From the IMG/VR virus record IMGVR_UViG_3300011563_000040: a stretch of 6,627 nt of DNA; one strand, 5' to 3'. The translations under genes were made by a program, and so were the position numbers. The notes under the pieces are model-generated. The model was given only the letters and a program-made list of their open reading frames with translations, was not told where the DNA came from and ran no database searches. This document shows positions 1,731 to 6,627 of this stretch, piece by piece (position 1 is the stretch's first letter; each line of letters begins with the position of its first letter). The DNA comes from a virus.

Positions 1731-1829
1731 ATTTCGCATAATGTAGTCCAGATTATGTTACATAGCCGATTTGCAACTATCTCCAGAGCAAATCGGCGTG
1801 ATTTAACATCAATCTGCATTATGCGAAAT
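1731..1829 (+). other. CTXphi-type attP: two inverted dif-like XerC/XerD sites that fold into a forked ssDNA hairpin
   Basis: Site A, + orientation: ATTTCGCATAA (1731-1741), TGTAGTCCAGA (11 nt), TTATGTTACAT (1753-1763). Site B, reverse complement of 1801-1829: ATTTCGCATAA, TGCAGAT (7 nt), TGATGTTAAAT. Intrastrand pairing: 1731-1743 with 1817-1829 (13 bp), a 5-nt bulge, 1749-1754 with 1811-1816, 1755-1760 with 1804-1809, 1762-1763 with 1801-1802, then an inner perfect 10-bp stem GCCGATTTGC (1765-1774) with GCAAATCGGC (1788-1797) and a 13-nt loop. The arms match the gammaproteobacterial dif consensus (E. coli dif GGTGCGCATAA-TGTATA-TTATGTTAAAT). Confidence 0.7.
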
Positions 1830-1888: not shown

Positions 1889-1934
1889 GGGCACACTGCT
1901 ATCTAATAGTGTGCCTGACTCCGGAATTTCGGAG
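1889..1934 (+). promoter_or_regulatory. Candidate (+)-strand rolling-circle origin: nick-site hairpin plus an adjacent palindrome
   Basis: GGCACACT (1890-1897) pairs with AGTGTGCC (1908-1915) around the loop GCTATCTAAT. The loop/stem junction reads CTAATAGTG, sharing the 8-mer TAATAGTG with the Ff origin nick region GTTCTTT/AATAGTGGACT, which sits in a similar hairpin. A second inverted repeat, CTCCG-GAATTT-CGGAG (1919-1934), follows, analogous to the Ff GTTCCAAACTGGAAC repeat. The surrounding 1830-1960 is visibly more GC-rich than the rest of the genome. Confidence 0.45.
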
Positions 1935-1964
1935 AAATCTAATATTCGGCGTCGATATATATAA

Positions 1965-2171
1965 TTAATCGGCTTTTTTTATTTCTTCGATATATTTAGT
2001 TACATCTTTTGCCTTTATATCATTTAAGTGCTTATAAATTAAGGCATTTATTATATCTGCTTCCTCAATTCTTTCTTTAGTTTCAATAATAAAATCTAAT
2101 GATTTCTCTTTAATTCCCTCTACAAATTCACCGCGGATACGGTAAGTTTTTGATAAGTCTGATTTTTTCAT
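1965..2171 (-). CDS. Small divergent transcriptional regulator, possibly ribbon-helix-helix type (68 aa from the second Met); candidate phage repressor
   Basis: It is the only well-supported minus-strand ORF and is divergent from rep, as rstR is in CTXphi. AGGTG lies 4 nt upstream of the ATG at 2171; the track start at 2186 has no Shine-Dalgarno sequence. The sequence MKKSDLSKTYRIRGEFVEGIKEKSLDF..EADIINALIYKHL fits a short N-terminal beta strand followed by two helices. Confidence 0.55.
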   Translation of the reverse strand: MKKSDLSKTYRIRGEFVEGIKEKSLDFIIETKERIEEADIINALIYKHLNDIKAKDVTKYIEEIKKAD

Positions 2172-2280
2172 GCAACACCTGAACATTGTTTACTGTGATA
2201 TTGTTATTTTGTCATACGTTGCGTTGTTACGTGTGATTCTGTTATATTTCTGTTAAATAGTTGCATGTGATGTTGTTGCA
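2172..2280. promoter_or_regulatory. Divergent control region with three direct repeats TGTGAT-NN-YGTT (candidate operators or iterons) and a possible rep promoter
   Basis: TGTGATATTGTT (2194-2205), TGTGATTCTGTT (2232-2243) and TGTGATGTTGTT (2266-2277), each preceded by a GTT(T)AC or GTTGCA-like element. The possible promoter is TTGCGT (2219-2224), an 18-nt spacer, then TATATT (2243-2248). The third repeat ends 3 nt before the rep ATG. Confidence 0.45.
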
Positions 2281-3501
2281 ATGCTCGATCATTTACGTTT
2301 AGCAGTTCCGATTCATCAGGCTTATGTCAGAAGTATTGACAATCACCATTTCTTTAATGGTGATTTGCTTGATTACGATCTTCCTGCGGCAACTAGACAT
2401 GTAAGTAAAACTGATGAGGGGGAAACGATAACAGGGGAGTTGTATCACCCTTATGAGTCTATCCCTAGTTCTTATACAGATATGGCAATGAAATTCTTTG
2501 CTAATACGATGAATGCAATGCCATATGTTGAGATTAAAGCTTCTCCGCTTAAGTTGCTTCAAGGCCATAACGTTTTTGGTTTTGAATGTATCAAGTTAGG
2601 TGCTACTGAGATGCTTGGCATGCTTATAGATTCATATCCTAAGTTATGCGGAATCTTGGATTTTGAGAACATTGAGGTCTTACACCTTGATACAACGTAT
2701 TTAACACGTTTACCTCATCAGAACATGGTTCAGCCAGTTCTTGATTATTTAGCTAATGTTTCAGCTGGGCATCGCAAAGCTAAGCAAGTTAAGTATTCAA
2801 ACTATATTACGTGGGGCAACGAAGATGGACGTTATATCCGCCCTAAAGCCTATGGCAAATTTGAAGAGTTAAAAGCCCAGTTACATAAAGTCCAGAAACA
2901 AGCGGACAAGGGCTGTATGCGTTCTAAAGCATTAGTTATTGCAATGCACGATGTTATGAAGTTTGCAAACGCAACTGTGCGTTTTGAAGCCCGTATTTGT
3001 AAAACTTATTTAGCTAAAAACGGGTATCCAACGAATCTCTGGAAATTAATTGATTTACAGCAGGAACAACCAGATCTGCTTCTTAAATTATGGCATGTAG
3101 CGTTTGACCCGATTTTAAATACGCTAAAGGGTGAGAGTATGAATTTTTCAAGTGATGGTGATGTATTAGACCTTCTGCGTTCCAAGCTTTATAAAATTAC
3201 TAAATCAGGTAAGACCAGTTATACGAAGGCTGATAATGCTTTCAAATTTTATTGCTTACTGCGTCAGATCGGTTGGGAACAGATTAAAGAAATCTATAAA
3301 GAGTCTACGTTCTATGACAACGTTAATGCTCTTAAAGATGCAGGACTACCCAAAGCTCATTTACAGAATCTTCATAAGAATCCTAACGGTACAGTCATTC
3401 CATTTGTTCGTCTTGTTGAAATTAAGTTTCAAGAACAGTTGCCACCAGATTATCAAATTCCAGTTTCTAGATATGCCGAAAGAATCGGTTTAGTTGCCTA
3501 A
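2281..3501 (+). CDS. Rolling-circle replication initiator (gpII / RstA-like phage replication protein), 406 aa
   Basis: This is the largest non-structural ORF. It lies immediately upstream of an approximately 89-aa ssDNA-binding candidate, in the canonical inovirus position. The N-terminus MLDHLRLAVPI and the segments KAYGKFEEL and VRFEARICKTYL resemble, from memory, motifs of phage gene II/X and CRI-type replication proteins. This is not verified by any search. Confidence 0.75.
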   Translation: MLDHLRLAVPIHQAYVRSIDNHHFFNGDLLDYDLPAATRHVSKTDEGETITGELYHPYESIPSSYTDMAMKFFANTMNAMPYVEIKASPLKLLQGHNVFGFECIKLGATEMLGMLIDSYPKLCGILDFENIEVLHLDTTYLTRLPHQNMVQPVLDYLANVSAGHRKAKQVKYSNYITWGNEDGRYIRPKAYGKFEELKAQLHKVQKQADKGCMRSKALVIAMHDVMKFANATVRFEARICKTYLAKNGYPTNLWKLIDLQQEQPDLLLKLWHVAFDPILNTLKGESMNFSSDGDVLDLLRSKLYKITKSGKTSYTKADNAFKFYCLLRQIGWEQIKEIYKESTFYDNVNALKDAGLPKAHLQNLHKNPNGTVIPFVRLVEIKFQEQLPPDYQIPVSRYAERIGLVA

Positions 3502-3513
3502 GAGGTTAAGCAA

Positions 3514-3783
3514 ATGCAAGTTCAATTTAATAAACGTTCGATTTCACCATCTGTATTTAAAAAAGATGACAAGATTTATTTCAGCACAACAGTATTTTCG
3601 CCAGTTCGCTATAACTTGAATTTTGGTGAAGGAATGATGCCAGTTGAACAGATGAAATCTGTTCTGGAGCAGTGTGCTGAAAATGCTCAGGATGTCGAAA
3701 TTGAATTTACTGAGTCACAAACTAAGTTTGGCCCAGTTATGCAAATTTTCAGTGTTAAGCCGTTGCCGAAGAAACAGCCATGA
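3514..3783 (+). CDS. Probable ssDNA-binding protein (gpV / RstB positional analogue), 89 aa
   Basis: AGAGG lies 8 nt upstream of the ATG. The size is close to Ff gpV (87 aa), and the ORF sits directly after rep. The call rests on position and size only. Confidence 0.5.
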   Translation: MQVQFNKRSISPSVFKKDDKIYFSTTVFSPVRYNLNFGEGMMPVEQMKSVLEQCAENAQDVEIEFTESQTKFGPVMQIFSVKPLPKKQP

Positions 3784-3968
3784 CAAAAAACGAACTTCAA
3801 GAGATTCATGAAATTGTTACTGGCTTAAATAAAGCCCAGGTACATATTCAATATATGTTAGCTAACCATCATGAGTCTTTTATAGATAAATCGTCTTTAC
3901 GTGGTTTGCAAAATGATCTGCAAGTTCAGATCGACAAATTAAATAAGCTATGTAAAACAGATACTTAA
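3780..3968 (+). CDS. Hypothetical 62-aa helical protein (ATGA overlap with the upstream ORF)
   Basis: ATG at 3780 overlaps the TGA at 3781-3783, suggesting translational coupling. The protein is soluble, charged and coiled-coil-like (..LQNDLQVQIDKLNKL..). It is the last gene of the replication module, just before the third dif-like site. Confidence 0.55.
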   Translation: MTKNELQEIHEIVTGLNKAQVHIQYMLANHHESFIDKSSLRGLQNDLQVQIDKLNKLCKTDT

Positions 3969-3976
3969 TATACACT

Positions 3977-4004
3977 ATTTCGCATAATGTATAATATGTT
4001 AAAA
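3977..4004 (+). other. Third dif-like XerC/XerD site with a canonical 6-bp central region
   Basis: ATTTCGCATAA-TGTATA-ATATGTTAAAA matches E. coli dif (GGTGCGCATAA-TGTATA-TTATGTTAAAT) at 23 of 28 positions. The first 15 nt (ATTTCGCATAATGTA) are identical to 1731-1745. It lies in the intergenic gap between the replication and structural modules. Confidence 0.65.
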
Positions 4005-4030
4005 ATCAATAACTTACGGTAATAATTAAT

Positions 4031-4129
4031 ATGACACAGTTTATGTATAAGTGCAAGAAGTGTGGCAAACAGTTCAGCATACATGCTCAATACTGTGTCC
4101 ATTTTTATAACTGTACTAAGAGAATTTAA
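4031..4129 (+). CDS. Candidate 32-aa cysteine-rich mini-protein with a zinc-finger-like motif (not in the ORF track)
   Basis: The translation is MTQFMYKCKKCGKQFSIHAQYCVHFYNCTKRI, which contains Y-x-C-x2-C-x3-F-x5-Y-x2-H-x3-C. Its stop (4127-4129) lies 3 nt before the ATG of the next ORF (4133), which has no well-spaced Shine-Dalgarno sequence of its own; this is consistent with coupling. There is no clear Shine-Dalgarno sequence before 4031. Confidence 0.35.
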   Translation: MTQFMYKCKKCGKQFSIHAQYCVHFYNCTKRI

Positions 4130-4132
4130 GGA

Positions 4133-4324
4133 ATGGCAAGCATCTGTGAAATTGTCGAAGAGAGCACAAATGCCTGCCTTAAATGGGTCGAATACAAGTC
4201 TGTAATCGACCAGTTAGCAATCACAAAGGATGATGCTCTCATTATCTTAACACCGATAGCGGGTATCTACGTCCTTTTGATTGGGTGGTCTTTCATTATG
4301 CTCATCTACCACCAGAGCAAATAA
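4133..4324 (+). CDS. Small membrane-anchored protein (63 aa, C-terminal TM); candidate minor virion or morphogenesis protein
   Basis: An acidic N-terminal half is followed by the hydrophobic segment LIILTPIAGIYVLLIGWSFIMLIY. It sits immediately upstream of the major coat gene, the slot that gVII/gIX occupy in Ff. Confidence 0.55.
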   Translation: MASICEIVEESTNACLKWVEYKSVIDQLAITKDDALIILTPIAGIYVLLIGWSFIMLIYHQSK

Positions 4325-4337
4325 AAGGAAAATCCTC

Positions 4338-4613
4338 ATGACTTACAAAAACGTAGAAGTAATTAAAGCTCCAGTTGCTCAAGTTAAAAAAACTTGGTTC
4401 CAACGTCATTGTCCTACTTTTGCTGCTGCTGGTGCTGTTGTTGGTTCAATGGTAGTTGCTTCTAGTGCAAATGCTGCTGGCGTTGCTGATTTGTTTACCG
4501 AAATTTCAACTGAAATGGGTGGCGTTTCAACTGGCGTTTTGTCAATTCTAACAATCCTTGCTGGTGTAGTTGCGTTGCTTCTTGGTTGGTCTTACGTCAA
4601 GAAAGCACGTTAA
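4338..4613 (+). CDS. Major coat protein precursor (pVIII-like), 91 aa; predicted mature form 45 aa
   Basis: AAGGAA lies 7 nt upstream of the ATG at 4338, which I prefer to the track's TTG start at 4281. The leader ends ...VVASSANA|AG, an AxA cleavage site. The mature peptide AGVADLFTEISTEMGG-VSTGVLSILTILAGVVALLLGWSY-VKKAR has the classic acidic N-terminus, hydrophobic core and basic C-terminus. A strong terminator follows the gene. Confidence 0.85.
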   Translation: MTYKNVEVIKAPVAQVKKTWFQRHCPTFAAAGAVVGSMVVASSANAAGVADLFTEISTEMGGVSTGVLSILTILAGVVALLLGWSYVKKAR

Positions 4614-4627
4614 TTACTGCTCGAATC

Positions 4628-4649
4628 TCCCAGCTTCGGCTGGGATTTT
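4628..4649 (+). terminator. Rho-independent terminator after the major coat gene
   Basis: TCCCAGC (4628-4634) pairs with GCTGGGA (4639-4645) around a TTCG tetraloop, followed by TTTT (4646-4649). The placement matches the terminator after gVIII in Ff. Confidence 0.8.
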
Positions 4650-4665
4650 CGTATAAGGGGGGAGT

Positions 4666-4749
4666 ATGGAAGAAGCATCTATTTTTTACTGGTTACTGGT
4701 CATTGTGCCTTGGATTGCATTACATGGGATATGGAGAGTGATTAAATGA
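4666..4749 (+). CDS. 27-aa hydrophobic mini-protein (pVII/pIX-like candidate), not in the ORF track
   Basis: A purine-rich Shine-Dalgarno sequence AAGGGGGGAG (4655-4664) precedes the ATG at 4666. The translation is MEEASIFYWLLVIVPWIALHGIWRVIK. Its TGA (4747-4749) overlaps the ATG (4746-4748) of the pIII-like gene as ATGA, and a GGAGAG Shine-Dalgarno sequence for that gene lies inside it. Confidence 0.6.
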   Translation: MEEASIFYWLLVIVPWIALHGIWRVIK

Positions 4750-6005
4750 AAAAGTTTCTTTCTGTCTTTTTTGCATTCACTCTTTATTTTAATTTAATTA
4801 CACAAGCCAATGCAGCAAGTCTTGGCGGATGGTCTTTGGGTTCTCCAGTTGCTTCTGGTGCTTCTGCAATTGTCAACGGAACAAAAGAAATCATCTTAAA
4901 CGGTGCTTCAAAAATTGCGAAAGGCACTGCAAAAATAACCCCTAATGCTTCACAAGTTGCAAATGTACTCAAGCGTGGTGCAGCCGGTTATGCCTTGTCT
5001 GTTGCTGTTGAACAGCTTTTAGGAGCGGTTGATTGGGTTTTAGATCCGGCGAATAATCAGATTGTTTATACAAAGCCTTCTGATTTACCAGCGCCAAATG
5101 ATCAATTTGTCTGGATTTGGGCGGGCTGCTCAAGTTATCAAGCATGTACGGTCGAGGGTATTATAGGTTCTACACCACAGGCTGCTTGTCAAAAATGGGC
5201 TGATGCACGTCAACCCCTCACTGTATCTAGAACTATTTCAATGTCAGAAATTCGAGCTAGATGTATCTTTAGTGATAATACACAGCAAGATGTACAACGT
5301 GTTGCAAATCCTGCTTATGATCCGGACGCAGAAGATCAGAAGAAAACATTACCGCTTGAAACTGTAGCTCAAAAAGTTATTTCTAATGCTGCTGGTGGTG
5401 ATGTATCAGCTCAACAAGCGATTACTGCTGCTGCACAAGATGTAATTAATGAAGCAGAAAATGACAGTGCTAAAGCTGCTCCGATTATTCAGCAACTAGA
5501 AGCATCAAAAGCAATTGAAGCTGAAAATACGGCAACTGGTGAACAGACACAAAACCCTGCAAATCCTAATGTCACTAACATAAAACTAGAATTTCCAGCA
5601 TTCTGCGGTTGGGCGCCTACCGTCTGTGAAGCTGCTCAAACTGTAATTTCGTTTCCAGTCACTCTGACGAGCTGGTGGAATACAGCAAATCAAAAAGCAG
5701 ATTCATGGGCTAACTCAATTTCTCAATCATGGGCAGAAGCCAAAGAGTGGGCAACCTCAGAGAAAAATGAAGATACAGAACTAGATATACCTGATCAGGA
5801 ACAACCAGATATAGACACAGATATAGCTTTCGGTGGCATGTGTCCTGATGATCGACAAGCTGAAATAAACATGGGTGTCGGTGTTATCAAAATGCCTATT
5901 TCATATGAGCCGATCTGTACAACAGTATCAACTGCAAAGCCTGTTCTTATCTTTGTCGGATTTTTTGTGGCTGCTTTAATTATTGGTGGAGTAAAAACAG
6001 AATGA
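4746..6005 (+). CDS. Minor coat / host-adsorption protein (pIII / OrfU-like), 419 aa
   Basis: It has an N-terminal signal peptide MKKFLSVFFAFTLYFNLITQANA|AS, 8 Cys in pairs, an A/Q/E-rich low-complexity linker, a Trp-rich segment and a C-terminal membrane anchor (PVLIFVGFFVAALIIGGV). It sits between the major coat and pVI-like genes. Confidence 0.75.
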   Translation: MKKFLSVFFAFTLYFNLITQANAASLGGWSLGSPVASGASAIVNGTKEIILNGASKIAKGTAKITPNASQVANVLKRGAAGYALSVAVEQLLGAVDWVLDPANNQIVYTKPSDLPAPNDQFVWIWAGCSSYQACTVEGIIGSTPQAACQKWADARQPLTVSRTISMSEIRARCIFSDNTQQDVQRVANPAYDPDAEDQKKTLPLETVAQKVISNAAGGDVSAQQAITAAAQDVINEAENDSAKAAPIIQQLEASKAIEAENTATGEQTQNPANPNVTNIKLEFPAFCGWAPTVCEAAQTVISFPVTLTSWWNTANQKADSWANSISQSWAEAKEWATSEKNEDTELDIPDQEQPDIDTDIAFGGMCPDDRQAEINMGVGVIKMPISYEPICTTVSTAKPVLIFVGFFVAALIIGGVKTE

Positions 6006-6274
6006 GTTTATCTACTATTTTACAAAGCATTCAAAAGGGAACATTAAAGAATATTCTTACTGGCGCTGGTCTTGCTCTTACTACTTCTTCAATTTCCTAT
6101 GTCGCTTTTCAACAGGCTGTAAATGCTGTTCAACAGCAAGCGTATGGAATACCGGGTGACTTGATTGCAATCCTTCATTTAGCTGGATTTGATATTTTCT
6201 TTTCAACTGTACTTGCAGCAATCGTGACTAGACTTTCACTGAATGCTGGTAATTTGGCATTAAAGAAGATTTAA
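6002..6274 (+). CDS. pVI / Ace-like small hydrophobic minor coat protein, 90 aa
   Basis: ATGA overlap with the pIII-like stop. It has hydrophobic segments (LTGAGLALTTSSISYVAF and LAGFDIFFSTVLAAIV). It lies between the pIII-like gene and zot, as gVI does in Ff and ace does in CTXphi. Confidence 0.65.
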   Translation: MSLSTILQSIQKGTLKNILTGAGLALTTSSISYVAFQQAVNAVQQQAYGIPGDLIAILHLAGFDIFFSTVLAAIVTRLSLNAGNLALKKI

Positions 6275-6275
6275 A

Positions 6276-6627
6276 ATGATACGTTTAGATACTGGCACTC
6301 CAGGTGCAGGAAAAACTTTAATTAATGTTCGTGATATTGTTCAGTTAGAAAAAACTAATCAGAAAAATATCATTCTTAATCCTAAAATATATGAAACTAA
6401 TTTAAAGGTTATCCAGGATAAAAAAATATCTGATGATTTTTTATATTGTGTTCGAAAAGTAGGCCAAGGTGTTGATCTAAAAGAACAGGTTTTTCATTTT
6501 GATAATACCTATTTTGATTTCTTAAAATCATCTGAACGTATAGAAGAATATTTTTCTCGCTCTATTTTTTATAATGAAATTATTGAACGAGTTAACAATG
6601 AACATAATTTAAAACTAAATAAAGTTC
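6276..6627 (+). CDS. zot: Zot / pI-family phage assembly ATPase, N-terminal part (continues at 1..1214 across the circular junction; about 480 aa in total)
   Basis: ATG at 6276, two bases after the stop of the preceding ORF. It translates MIRLDTGTPGAGKTLINV..., containing the Walker A P-loop GTPGAGKT. The frame is open to the window end and matches frame 3 at the window start (6507 corresponds to 3). The ORF track missed it because no stop codon falls inside the window. Confidence 0.85.
   Translation, partial: MIRLDTGTPGAGKTLINVRDIVQLEKTNQKNIILNPKIYETNLKVIQDKKISDDFLYCVRKVGQGVDLKEQVFHFDNTYFDFLKSSERIEEYFSRSIFYNEIIERVNNEHNLKLNKV
6505..6627. repeat. Terminal redundancy, right copy (identical to 1-123)
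   Basis: Same 123-bp string as the window start. Confidence 0.9.

Follow-up and report, generated by a model that had tools for sequence, protein, structure and literature searches.

The window analyzed here, that is, the whole stretch of 6627 nt (36% G+C), comprises a 6504-bp circle and a 123-bp terminal overlap. Because it encodes a gene II-type Rep, coat B, a DUF2523 pVI-like protein, and Zot/pI (Table 1), it is the DNA of a filamentous phage. The nearest database relatives, Acinetobacter sp. pANC7912.4 (L001) and A. baumannii pAb-D10a-a_4 (L002), are filed as plasmids but are really phage replicative forms (RFs), and a search of the plasmid database returned phage RFs alone. Rep-related loci in Acinetobacter and Moraxella genomes numbered 12, and megablast against the INPHARED phage database gave no match.

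In the replication module, the small divergent 73-aa ORF is a putative regulator, so called solely from its position, and the 89-aa ORF behind rep, the final conserved gene of the module, is a putative ssDNA-binding protein. The small orf62 that follows had no family match in Pfam or PHROGs and is missing in most relatives. On the morphogenesis side, the 32-aa Cys-rich ORF gave zinc-ribbon and C2H2 matches at sub-threshold scores only; across the IMG/VR loci, the first ORF in this place is Cys-rich in no fewer than three unrelated versions and hydrophobic in one more. Pfam scans of 11 of the 13 ORFs annotated in the window (all but the 27-aa ORF and the N-terminal portion of Zot) detected only Rep, coat B, and DUF2523 and no phage-encoded integrase; PHROGs added a Zot-like match (phrog_197) for the 579–1214 part of the Zot gene.

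Table 1. Features of the 6627-nt window and their coordinates.
Feature	Position	Strand	Remarks
Terminal repeat	6505–6627		Copy of 1–123
Site A, top strand of hairpin attP	1731–1763	+	XerC arm ATTTCGCATAA, 11-nt spacer starting TGT, XerD-like arm TTATGTTACAT
Site B, complementary strand of hairpin attP	1801–1829	−	XerC arm ATTTCGCATAA, 7-nt spacer TGCAGAT, XerD-like arm TGATGTTAAAT
Conserved block GGCACACTgctatctaatAGTGTGCC...CTCCGGAATTTCGGAG	1890–1926	+	Putative rolling-circle (+) origin; second mosaic breakpoint
Small divergent ORF, 73 aa	1965–2186	−	Repressor position of replication module; phrog_5219 (unknown function)
Rolling-circle replication initiator (gene II type)	2281–3501	+	Pfam Phage_CRI 7e-41, G2P_X_C 2.7e-12
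89-aa ORF	3514–3783	+	Gene V (ssDNA-binding) position; phrog_19820; next to Rep in all relatives
orf62	3780–3968	+	Variable small ORF between ssb-like gene and S
Site S, internal duplex dif-like site (28 bp)	3977–4004	+	ATTTCGCATAA-TGTATA-ATATGTTAAAA
S, XerC arm ATTTCGCATAA	3977–3987	+	
S, spacer TGTATA	3988–3993	+	
S, degenerate XerD arm ATATGTTAAAA	3994–4004	+	
Conserved motif ATCAATAACTTAC	4005–4017	+	Directly right of S; in nearly all S-bearing loci, whatever gene type follows
32-aa Cys-rich ORF	4031–4129	+	First gene right of S; kept in relatives
Structural genes of morphogenesis module	4133–6274	+	orf63, coat B, 27-aa ORF, pIII-like, pVI-like
Coat B	4338–4613	+	Inovirus coat B match
pIII-like protein, 419 aa	4746–6005	+	
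DUF2523 pVI-like protein	6002–6274	+	
Zot/pI assembly gene, start	6276–6627	+	Crosses circle junction, ends at window 1214

How does this phage enter the host chromosome? As single-stranded DNA, positions 1721–1840 fold into a long forked hairpin that pairs site A with site B (−30.9 kcal/mol, z = −7.9), and none of 200 shuffles was as stable. The homologous chromosomal left flank of L004 (A. johnsonii) and L005 (A. bouvetii), consisting of the end of an OmpA-like gene and a terminator, stops exactly at the XerC arm of A and is followed by the phage's own 11-nt A spacer. The empty attB is present in a metagenome contig (L336), in which the same flank runs straight into ATTGCGTATAA-TGTATA-TTATGTTAAAT. 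At right ends of the hairpin type (L012, L123, L272, L293, L370, L042), the sequence upstream of A is joined to a XerC arm, TGTATA, TTATGTTAAAT, and the chromosome, in this order. A metagenome census of complete dif sites, which came mostly from non-Acinetobacter bacteria, yielded no more than a single empty site, a single remnant, and two right ends of the hairpin type. Taken together, the left and right junctions bear the signature of CTX-type single-strand integration and indicate that the phage enters the chromosome through the A/B hairpin, with the exchange at the XerC cleavage point.

At the border of the two modules lies a site that we call S. The first-pass annotation had read it as a 28-bp dif-like site with a 6-bp spacer, and the sequence confirms this: S matches a degenerate Acinetobacter dif consensus at 26 of 28 positions, and none of 200 dinucleotide shuffles contained a match to S or to that consensus with ≤3 mismatches. 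The 11-nt ATTTCGCATAA is present in exactly three copies, at 1731 (+) in A, 1829 (−) in B, and 3977 (+) in S; as had been noted, S is in direct orientation to A and inverted to B, and its first 15 nt repeat 1731–1745 exactly. The identity of its spacer with that of E. coli dif also holds, as TGTATA is the spacer of enterobacterial dif and likewise of the chromosomal dif of Acinetobacter (A. baylyi) ADP1, GATTCGTATAATGTATATTATGTTAAAT, that is, GATTCGTATAA-TGTATA-TTATGTTAAAT (Carnoy & Roten, PMC2731167). The placement of S at the replication/structural boundary is equally correct, between the end of orf62 (3968) and the next ORF start (4031), with the Phage_CRI/G2P Rep on one side and coat B, the DUF2523 pVI-like gene, and Zot on the other, and the proposed parts of 2246 and 4258 bp add up to the 6504-bp circle. 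As single-stranded DNA, S has no structure (z = +0.5), and it must therefore act as duplex DNA.

An IMG/VR scan with the S core returned at least 120 contigs, and among the matches listed almost all were 4–10-kb contigs of the Acinetobacter inovirus type. We rejected a scan based on the right-flank 14-mer ATCAATAACTTACG, which lacked specificity and brought up mostly unrelated large phage contigs. With a replacement pattern that left XerD-arm base 1 free, this base, which is T in dif, was A in 101 of 104 phage-internal sites. In all, over 120 IMG/VR contigs have a conserved S. Loci retrieved through Rep alone served as the unbiased sample and provided 61 evaluable replication modules. Downstream of these lay S in 41 cases, a complete dif in 10, the immediately adjoining hairpin of another element in 4, and nothing of the kind in 6. 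Among the sites of this Rep-retrieved set, positions 5–23 (CGYATAA TGTATA ATATGT) were invariant in 41–42 of 42, base 18 (XerD-arm base 1) was A in 41 of 42, and the TGTATA spacer was present in 41 of 42; the variable bases were the four outer ones of the XerC arm and the five outer ones of the XerD arm. These results indicate that S is conserved among relatives together with its defect, the A in place of T at XerD-arm base 1. On the other hand, S is missing downstream of the 6 modules mentioned above and in a Moraxella osloensis relative, whose Rep is 63% identical and which forms tandem prophages with hairpins; it is therefore not essential for the CTX-type life cycle. Relatives of this kind, which the first-pass annotation had counted against its own reading, thus exist, but alongside the 41 modules that carry the site.

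S is flanked, in addition, by two short motifs that resemble each other. Directly to the right, nearly all of them carry ATCAATAACTTA, and ~12–25 nt to the left, most relatives carry a ATCAAAGGCTTA-like motif (e.g., L005:4650–4680), which is missing in the window, where orf62 lies instead. These motifs could be protein-binding or accessory sequences.

Has S recombined with the chromosomal dif? In ~18 contigs from several Acinetobacter species (L004, L005, L007, L010, L015, L038, L096, L115, L279, L304, L403, L405, L414, L419, L426, L432, L435, and L437), an S-left flank is followed by an S-type XerC arm, TGTATA, a perfect TTATGTTAAAT, and a chromosomal right flank; draft assemblies and IMG/VR account for many of the loci in our sample, which include some redundant ones. 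In the first four of these, the left flank consists of the end of the ssb-like gene and the ATCAAAGGCTTA motif, and the right flanks also occur beside hairpin-type ends or other left partners. The only sequence that the S × dif partners have in common is the 28-bp site. The products retain the phage-specific outer XerC arm (e.g., ATGA, TGTT, ACTT, GCTT) and now have T at base 18, which places the crossover within site positions 5–17, where a Xer exchange in the central region would be expected. The junctions thus show that S has recombined with the chromosomal dif.

The products take two forms. Stand-alone replication-only elements of the order A'..B-regulator-rep-ssb-dif, with no virion genes, are found in L004, L007, L010, and L304, and arrays of the order rep module-S-morphogenesis-A..B-rep module-dif in L005, L015, L038, L096, and L115; replication-only elements inside arrays occur also in L025, L130, and others. 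The expectation that one module might be met alone between dif-like sites was thus borne out in the ~18 contigs, where the replication module is bounded by A to its left and by a perfect dif to its right. The proposal of an RS1-like split of the genome survives for its replication half, in that such elements exist, but the morphogenesis part lacks a replicon, and a free circle of 4.3 kb was not seen. Neither a free replication-only circle nor, within these elements, an rstC-like gene was identified. The replication-only elements could have spread as hairpin-bearing satellites after one founding S × dif event, so that the ~18 contigs may reflect fewer independent deletions.

Contigs of 4.2–4.8 kb that reach from ~100 nt upstream of S to the hairpin were considered as free morphogenesis circles and rejected, because assembly breaks at duplicated replication modules fit them best. 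These draft contigs (L016, L034, L058, L084, L088, L089, L100, L106, L116, and L128) have their first base ~50–115 nt upstream of S and their last within the A/B hairpin, and their overhangs match assembler k-mer lengths, the footprint expected of a unique morphogenesis module enclosed by a duplicated replication module.

The dif that is regenerated by S × dif is reused for further hairpin integrations. At no fewer than 12 junctions, which we term R/A, hairpin site A lies directly on an S-type left flank (L025:2999; L130:1588 and 3733; L092:7445; L044:8319; L037:6669; L279:1376; L091:2477; L029:6872; L099:2434 and 4474; L039:706; L012:9453). The XerC arm at these junctions is the S-type CGTATAA where the native A of the same phage has CGCATAA. 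The stacks that result from this reuse contain up to three replication modules.

The two sides of S have also been combined differently in different phages. When 94 S sites were taken with 400-nt flanks, 42 left clusters and 40 right clusters occurred in 65 combinations, and only 38 of the 101 pairs with ≥90% identical left flanks had the right flank in common as well. Within the site, each arm goes with the flank on its own side, XerC with the left and XerD with the right. When 121 loci were compared all against all, the result placed 582 of the 3330 interior ends of HSPs with ≥90% identity within 100 nt of S (222 of these 582 in its first 10 nt) and none inside rep. The window shares with L121, L025, L069, and L039 the sequence from 3945/3977 across the circle junction to 1876/1902/1926 (91–98% identity) and not that from 1926 to 3945; L098 presents the reverse pattern, having the replication side alone in common with the window. 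These patterns indicate that S is the main mosaic breakpoint of the phage family, at which replication and morphogenesis modules reassort. In a 4983-bp IMG/VR circle (L043), S is joined to a non-homologous replication module with a Rep_trans gene (PF02486), together with a variant hairpin, a coat B gene, and no Zot match; an excised module was considered here and rejected, given its own Rep_trans and coat genes.

Breakpoints cluster at the conserved hairpin block 1890–1926 too. It is 92–95% conserved in relatives that are otherwise only ~70% identical, and the blocks shared with the window stop at 1876, 1902 (inside the loop), or 1926. This block is probably the (+) strand origin and nick site, and in free phages, the evolutionary module border opposite S lies nearer to it (~1876–1926) than to site A. 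Hybrids may therefore combine a Xer crossover at S with origin-to-origin replication in arrays, and part of the reassortment at S could be due to RecA recombination across a conserved island of ~40 bp.

Could an imperfect copy of dif within the phage act on the prophage after its entry? Our favored reading, held with moderate confidence, is that S is an attenuated internal Xer site that deletes or excises DNA and exchanges modules on duplex prophage arrays. S would be a conserved, deliberately imperfect duplex copy of dif at the replication/morphogenesis border in a large family of CTX-type phages of Acinetobacter. On entry, XerC would exchange a strand after the XerC arm of A, regenerating a perfect dif at the right end of the prophage, a step that the junctions support. 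In the duplex prophage, S and the terminal dif, or the S of a neighboring copy, would then be direct repeats with the same TGTATA, which the host XerCD could recombine; recombination between S and dif is seen in the junctions, and XerCD is the presumed enzyme.

Three outcomes would follow. First, S × terminal dif would drop the morphogenesis module and leave an RS1-like hairpin-regulator-rep-ssb element ending in a perfect dif, which later phages would reuse by hairpin integration, building stacks of replication modules. Second, arrays of the type [phage][rep module]-dif or [phage][phage] could release a complete circular RF. Third, a crossover between different resident phages would join one replication module to another morphogenesis module, which would explain S as the main mosaic breakpoint. 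Through such outcomes, S would presumably benefit the phage.

The defect of S may be part of this design. The XerCD system of A. baumannii is FtsK-dependent; it removes DNA lying between directly repeated dif sites, requires central regions that match, and seems unable to do without the ATAA-CR-TTAT core (bioRxiv 10.1101/2024.04.09.588662). Because the A at XerD-arm base 1 breaks this reported core, S might be a poor Xer substrate. Non-canonical XerD arms have been proposed to stabilize integrated elements against FtsK-driven excision (PMC9226527). Similarly, the A for T at the cleavage-side base of the XerD arm and the degenerate outer part of that arm would weaken XerD/FtsK-driven recombination, and this attenuation probably protects the virion genes. 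At a distance of 4.3 kb from the terminal dif, a perfect dif would soon be lost, whereas an attenuated site would recombine only occasionally. Binding and cleavage of S by XerC and XerD are predictions.

A bolder reading, which we find possible but rather doubtful, makes the replication module a semi-autonomous selfish unit, with S as its purpose-built, attenuated site. Such a unit would shed the virion genes via dif, stay behind as an RS1-like element with a fresh dif, and capture the morphogenesis module of the next phage. If true, this would be the phage counterpart of pdif exchange and a general Xer-driven route for the birth of phage satellites.

Alternatively, S could be a second, double-stranded attP of the VGJ or TLC type, through which the RF integrates reversibly into dif beside the hairpin route, as the first-pass annotation had suggested among its options; we consider this unlikely. 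It is true that S has a full XerC arm, a spacer identical to that of host dif, and a degenerate XerD arm like that of the TLCφ attP, and that in the arrays listed above S and dif flank exactly one genome equivalent, which S × dif integration beside a remnant would produce as well. However, chromosomal or morphogenesis-end (M-end) DNA was found to the left of S at 0 of 123 S sites, a count in which RF integration through S into an S-derived dif would look identical to the native R-S-M order, whereas non-native hairpin junctions (chromosome/A and R/A) numbered at least 14. That the non-native junctions are all of the hairpin type argues for the hairpin as the entry route and for S as a point of deletion and exchange. 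Furthermore, no activator was detected: Pfam searches with the 10 larger ORFs (E ≤ 0.01) and with the four small ORFs closest to S (E ≤ 10) gave no match to a XafT (DUF3653) homologue, and no other Xer factor was found among the window ORFs with Pfam and PHROGs.

The comparison with the two phages points the same way. Like VGJφ, the phage is filamentous and carries a duplex site with XerC and XerD arms and XerC-side homology with dif, and hybrid phages from arrays at dif are a further likeness. Yet VGJφ integrates via its site, a double-stranded attP used by XerC only, while the left ends identified here are all A-type, none having the chromosomal XerC arm and phage XerD arm of a VGJ-type attL; the 6-bp spacer of S is, moreover, fully identical to that of dif. 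With the TLCφ attP, S shares a central region identical to host dif and a non-canonical XerD arm. In TLCφ, however, which is XerD-first and XafT-activated, that site is the only attP, and no integration was seen through S.

It is quite unlikely that S is a cer/psi-like multimer-resolution site that keeps the RF monomeric, with recombination at the chromosomal dif as a side effect. S is kept in the episomal forms deposited as plasmids (L001, L002), cer and psi are likewise Xer cores on small multicopy circular replicons, and the conserved ATCAAAGGCTTA-like and ATCAATAACTTA motifs on its left and right could be accessory sequences. For comparison, cer and psi have ~180 bp of accessory sequence and are FtsK-independent. 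The Xer sites of A. baumannii, however, are reported to be FtsK-dependent, a poor fit to small multicopy circles (bioRxiv 10.1101/2024.04.09.588662). Rolling-circle RFs of other inoviruses need no such site, and relatives without S exist.

We regard as very unlikely the possibility that S is mainly a transcription signal, a promoter or operator of the morphogenesis operon, that its conserved T-to-A change serves to form a TATAAT, and that the exchanges reflect homologous recombination across a regulatory island. The A at site position 18 does create a perfect TATAAT (3990–3995), ~35 nt upstream of the first structural-side ORF and beside the conserved downstream motif. Nevertheless, no acceptable −35 element or TG extension is present in the window, a sigma-70 consensus scan called no + strand promoter with this −10, and promoter-like matches in the region were below shuffle expectation. 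A transcription signal would also leave unexplained the invariant CGYATAA and whole spacer, the close match to the dif consensus, and the S × dif junctions with non-homologous chromosomal DNA. Dimer resolution of the RF and a transcriptional role are possible as additional functions of S.

It is scarcely credible that the segment 1830–3976 is an Acinetobacter pdif module that inverts or is exchanged by B × S, another of the earlier options, as the layout would suit it (B and S lie in inverted orientation, and the XerC arm of each points toward the segment) but the 7-nt spacer of B is unrelated to TGTATA when Xer needs matching central regions, all 289 gene matches in 126 loci (Rep 93, Zot 114, pIII 82) are co-oriented with S, and the exchanged block stops near the origin and not at B. 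Inverted bounding sites are thus present, whereas compatible sites, either orientation, and occurrence on other replicons were not found. The pdif sites of Acinetobacter plasmids (Re27, XerC/D) do resemble S in host genus, in the Xer arm consensus, and in bordering recombined modules, and exchange at both needs matching central regions (bioRxiv 10.1101/2024.04.09.588662). Unlike S, they bound their modules as inverted sites with various spacers on Rep_3 plasmids; S is a single site of the direct-repeat type with the chromosomal spacer, working with the chromosomal dif and the rolling-circle origin and without inversion.

We return to S as an attenuated internal Xer site. Like CTXφ and RS1 of Vibrio cholerae, the phage has no integrase, and two inverted dif-like sites fold into a (+) strand hairpin attP; through exchange on the XerC side, a dif is regenerated right of the prophage, prophages occur in tandem arrays, and a replication/regulation part is set off from a core, with replication-only elements at dif beside full prophages (PMC9226527). 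Of the marks of a CTX-type IMEX, the phage shows the hairpin attP, the lack of an integrase, and, in relatives, dif junctions with an attL of XerC arm plus attP spacer and a regenerated dif at attR. The replication-only elements resemble RS1 in having replication/regulation genes alone at dif, either single or beside full prophages. The Acinetobacter phage differs from CTXφ in its internal S, which marks exactly the border between the two parts and has recombined with dif. To our knowledge, no internal duplex dif-like site separates RS2 from the core in CTXφ, and the formation of RS1 has not been attributed to Xer. In the literature, as far as it was covered, no filamentous phage of the CTX type or of Acinetobacter is described as having an internal dif-like site.

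CTX-type phages are regarded as trapped in the chromosome, as their attP exists only in ssDNA, and we know of no accepted mechanism for the origin of replication-only satellites such as RS1. An internal duplex copy of dif at the replication/core border would provide a testable mechanism for the trimming of prophages, the release of circles from arrays, and the exchange of virion modules, and the virion modules exchanged at S determine host range. The genus is one in which Xer-bounded modules already spread antibiotic resistance. In addition, the more than 100 natural "attenuated dif" variants form a series from which one could learn how changes in the XerD arm tune Xer/FtsK activity.

Several minor observations concern individual loci. 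In L006 (position 3122; the same contig as L418), S is ATTTCGTATAA-TATAGA-TTATGTAAACA, and the A spacer of that phage also starts with TAT; in L042 (position 5817), a hairpin-type right end, AGTTCGCATAA-TAGAGA-TTATGTTAAAT, adjoins the chromosomal flank. These unusual spacers may reflect a different spacer of the host dif or an exchange on the XerD side. A covariation between the first 3 nt of the A spacer and the S spacer, suggested by L006, was rejected, as it fails in L096, L092, L047, and L119, where the A spacer starts with TAA, TTT, or TCT while S has TGTATA. In the Moraxella osloensis chromosome with the relative that has no S, a 916-bp unit of hairpin and small regulator-position ORF is duplicated (L008:8012–9430) upstream of a tandem prophage array with a period of 6686 bp, a kind of remnant unlike the rep-module remnants of Acinetobacter. 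A complex array in A. geminorum (L012:4963–9453) has several A sites, between which lie fragments of a truncated Rep along with structural genes that have been rearranged, with a run of N and duplicated flanks just before the terminal dif, which suggests the decay of older members plus an assembly gap. Lastly, the non-coding block 1465–1620 of the window, downstream of an 89-aa ORF, has 89–96% identity with the otherwise dissimilar L116, L071, L133, L048, and L070 and may be a packaging signal or a minus-strand origin that moves as a small module of its own.
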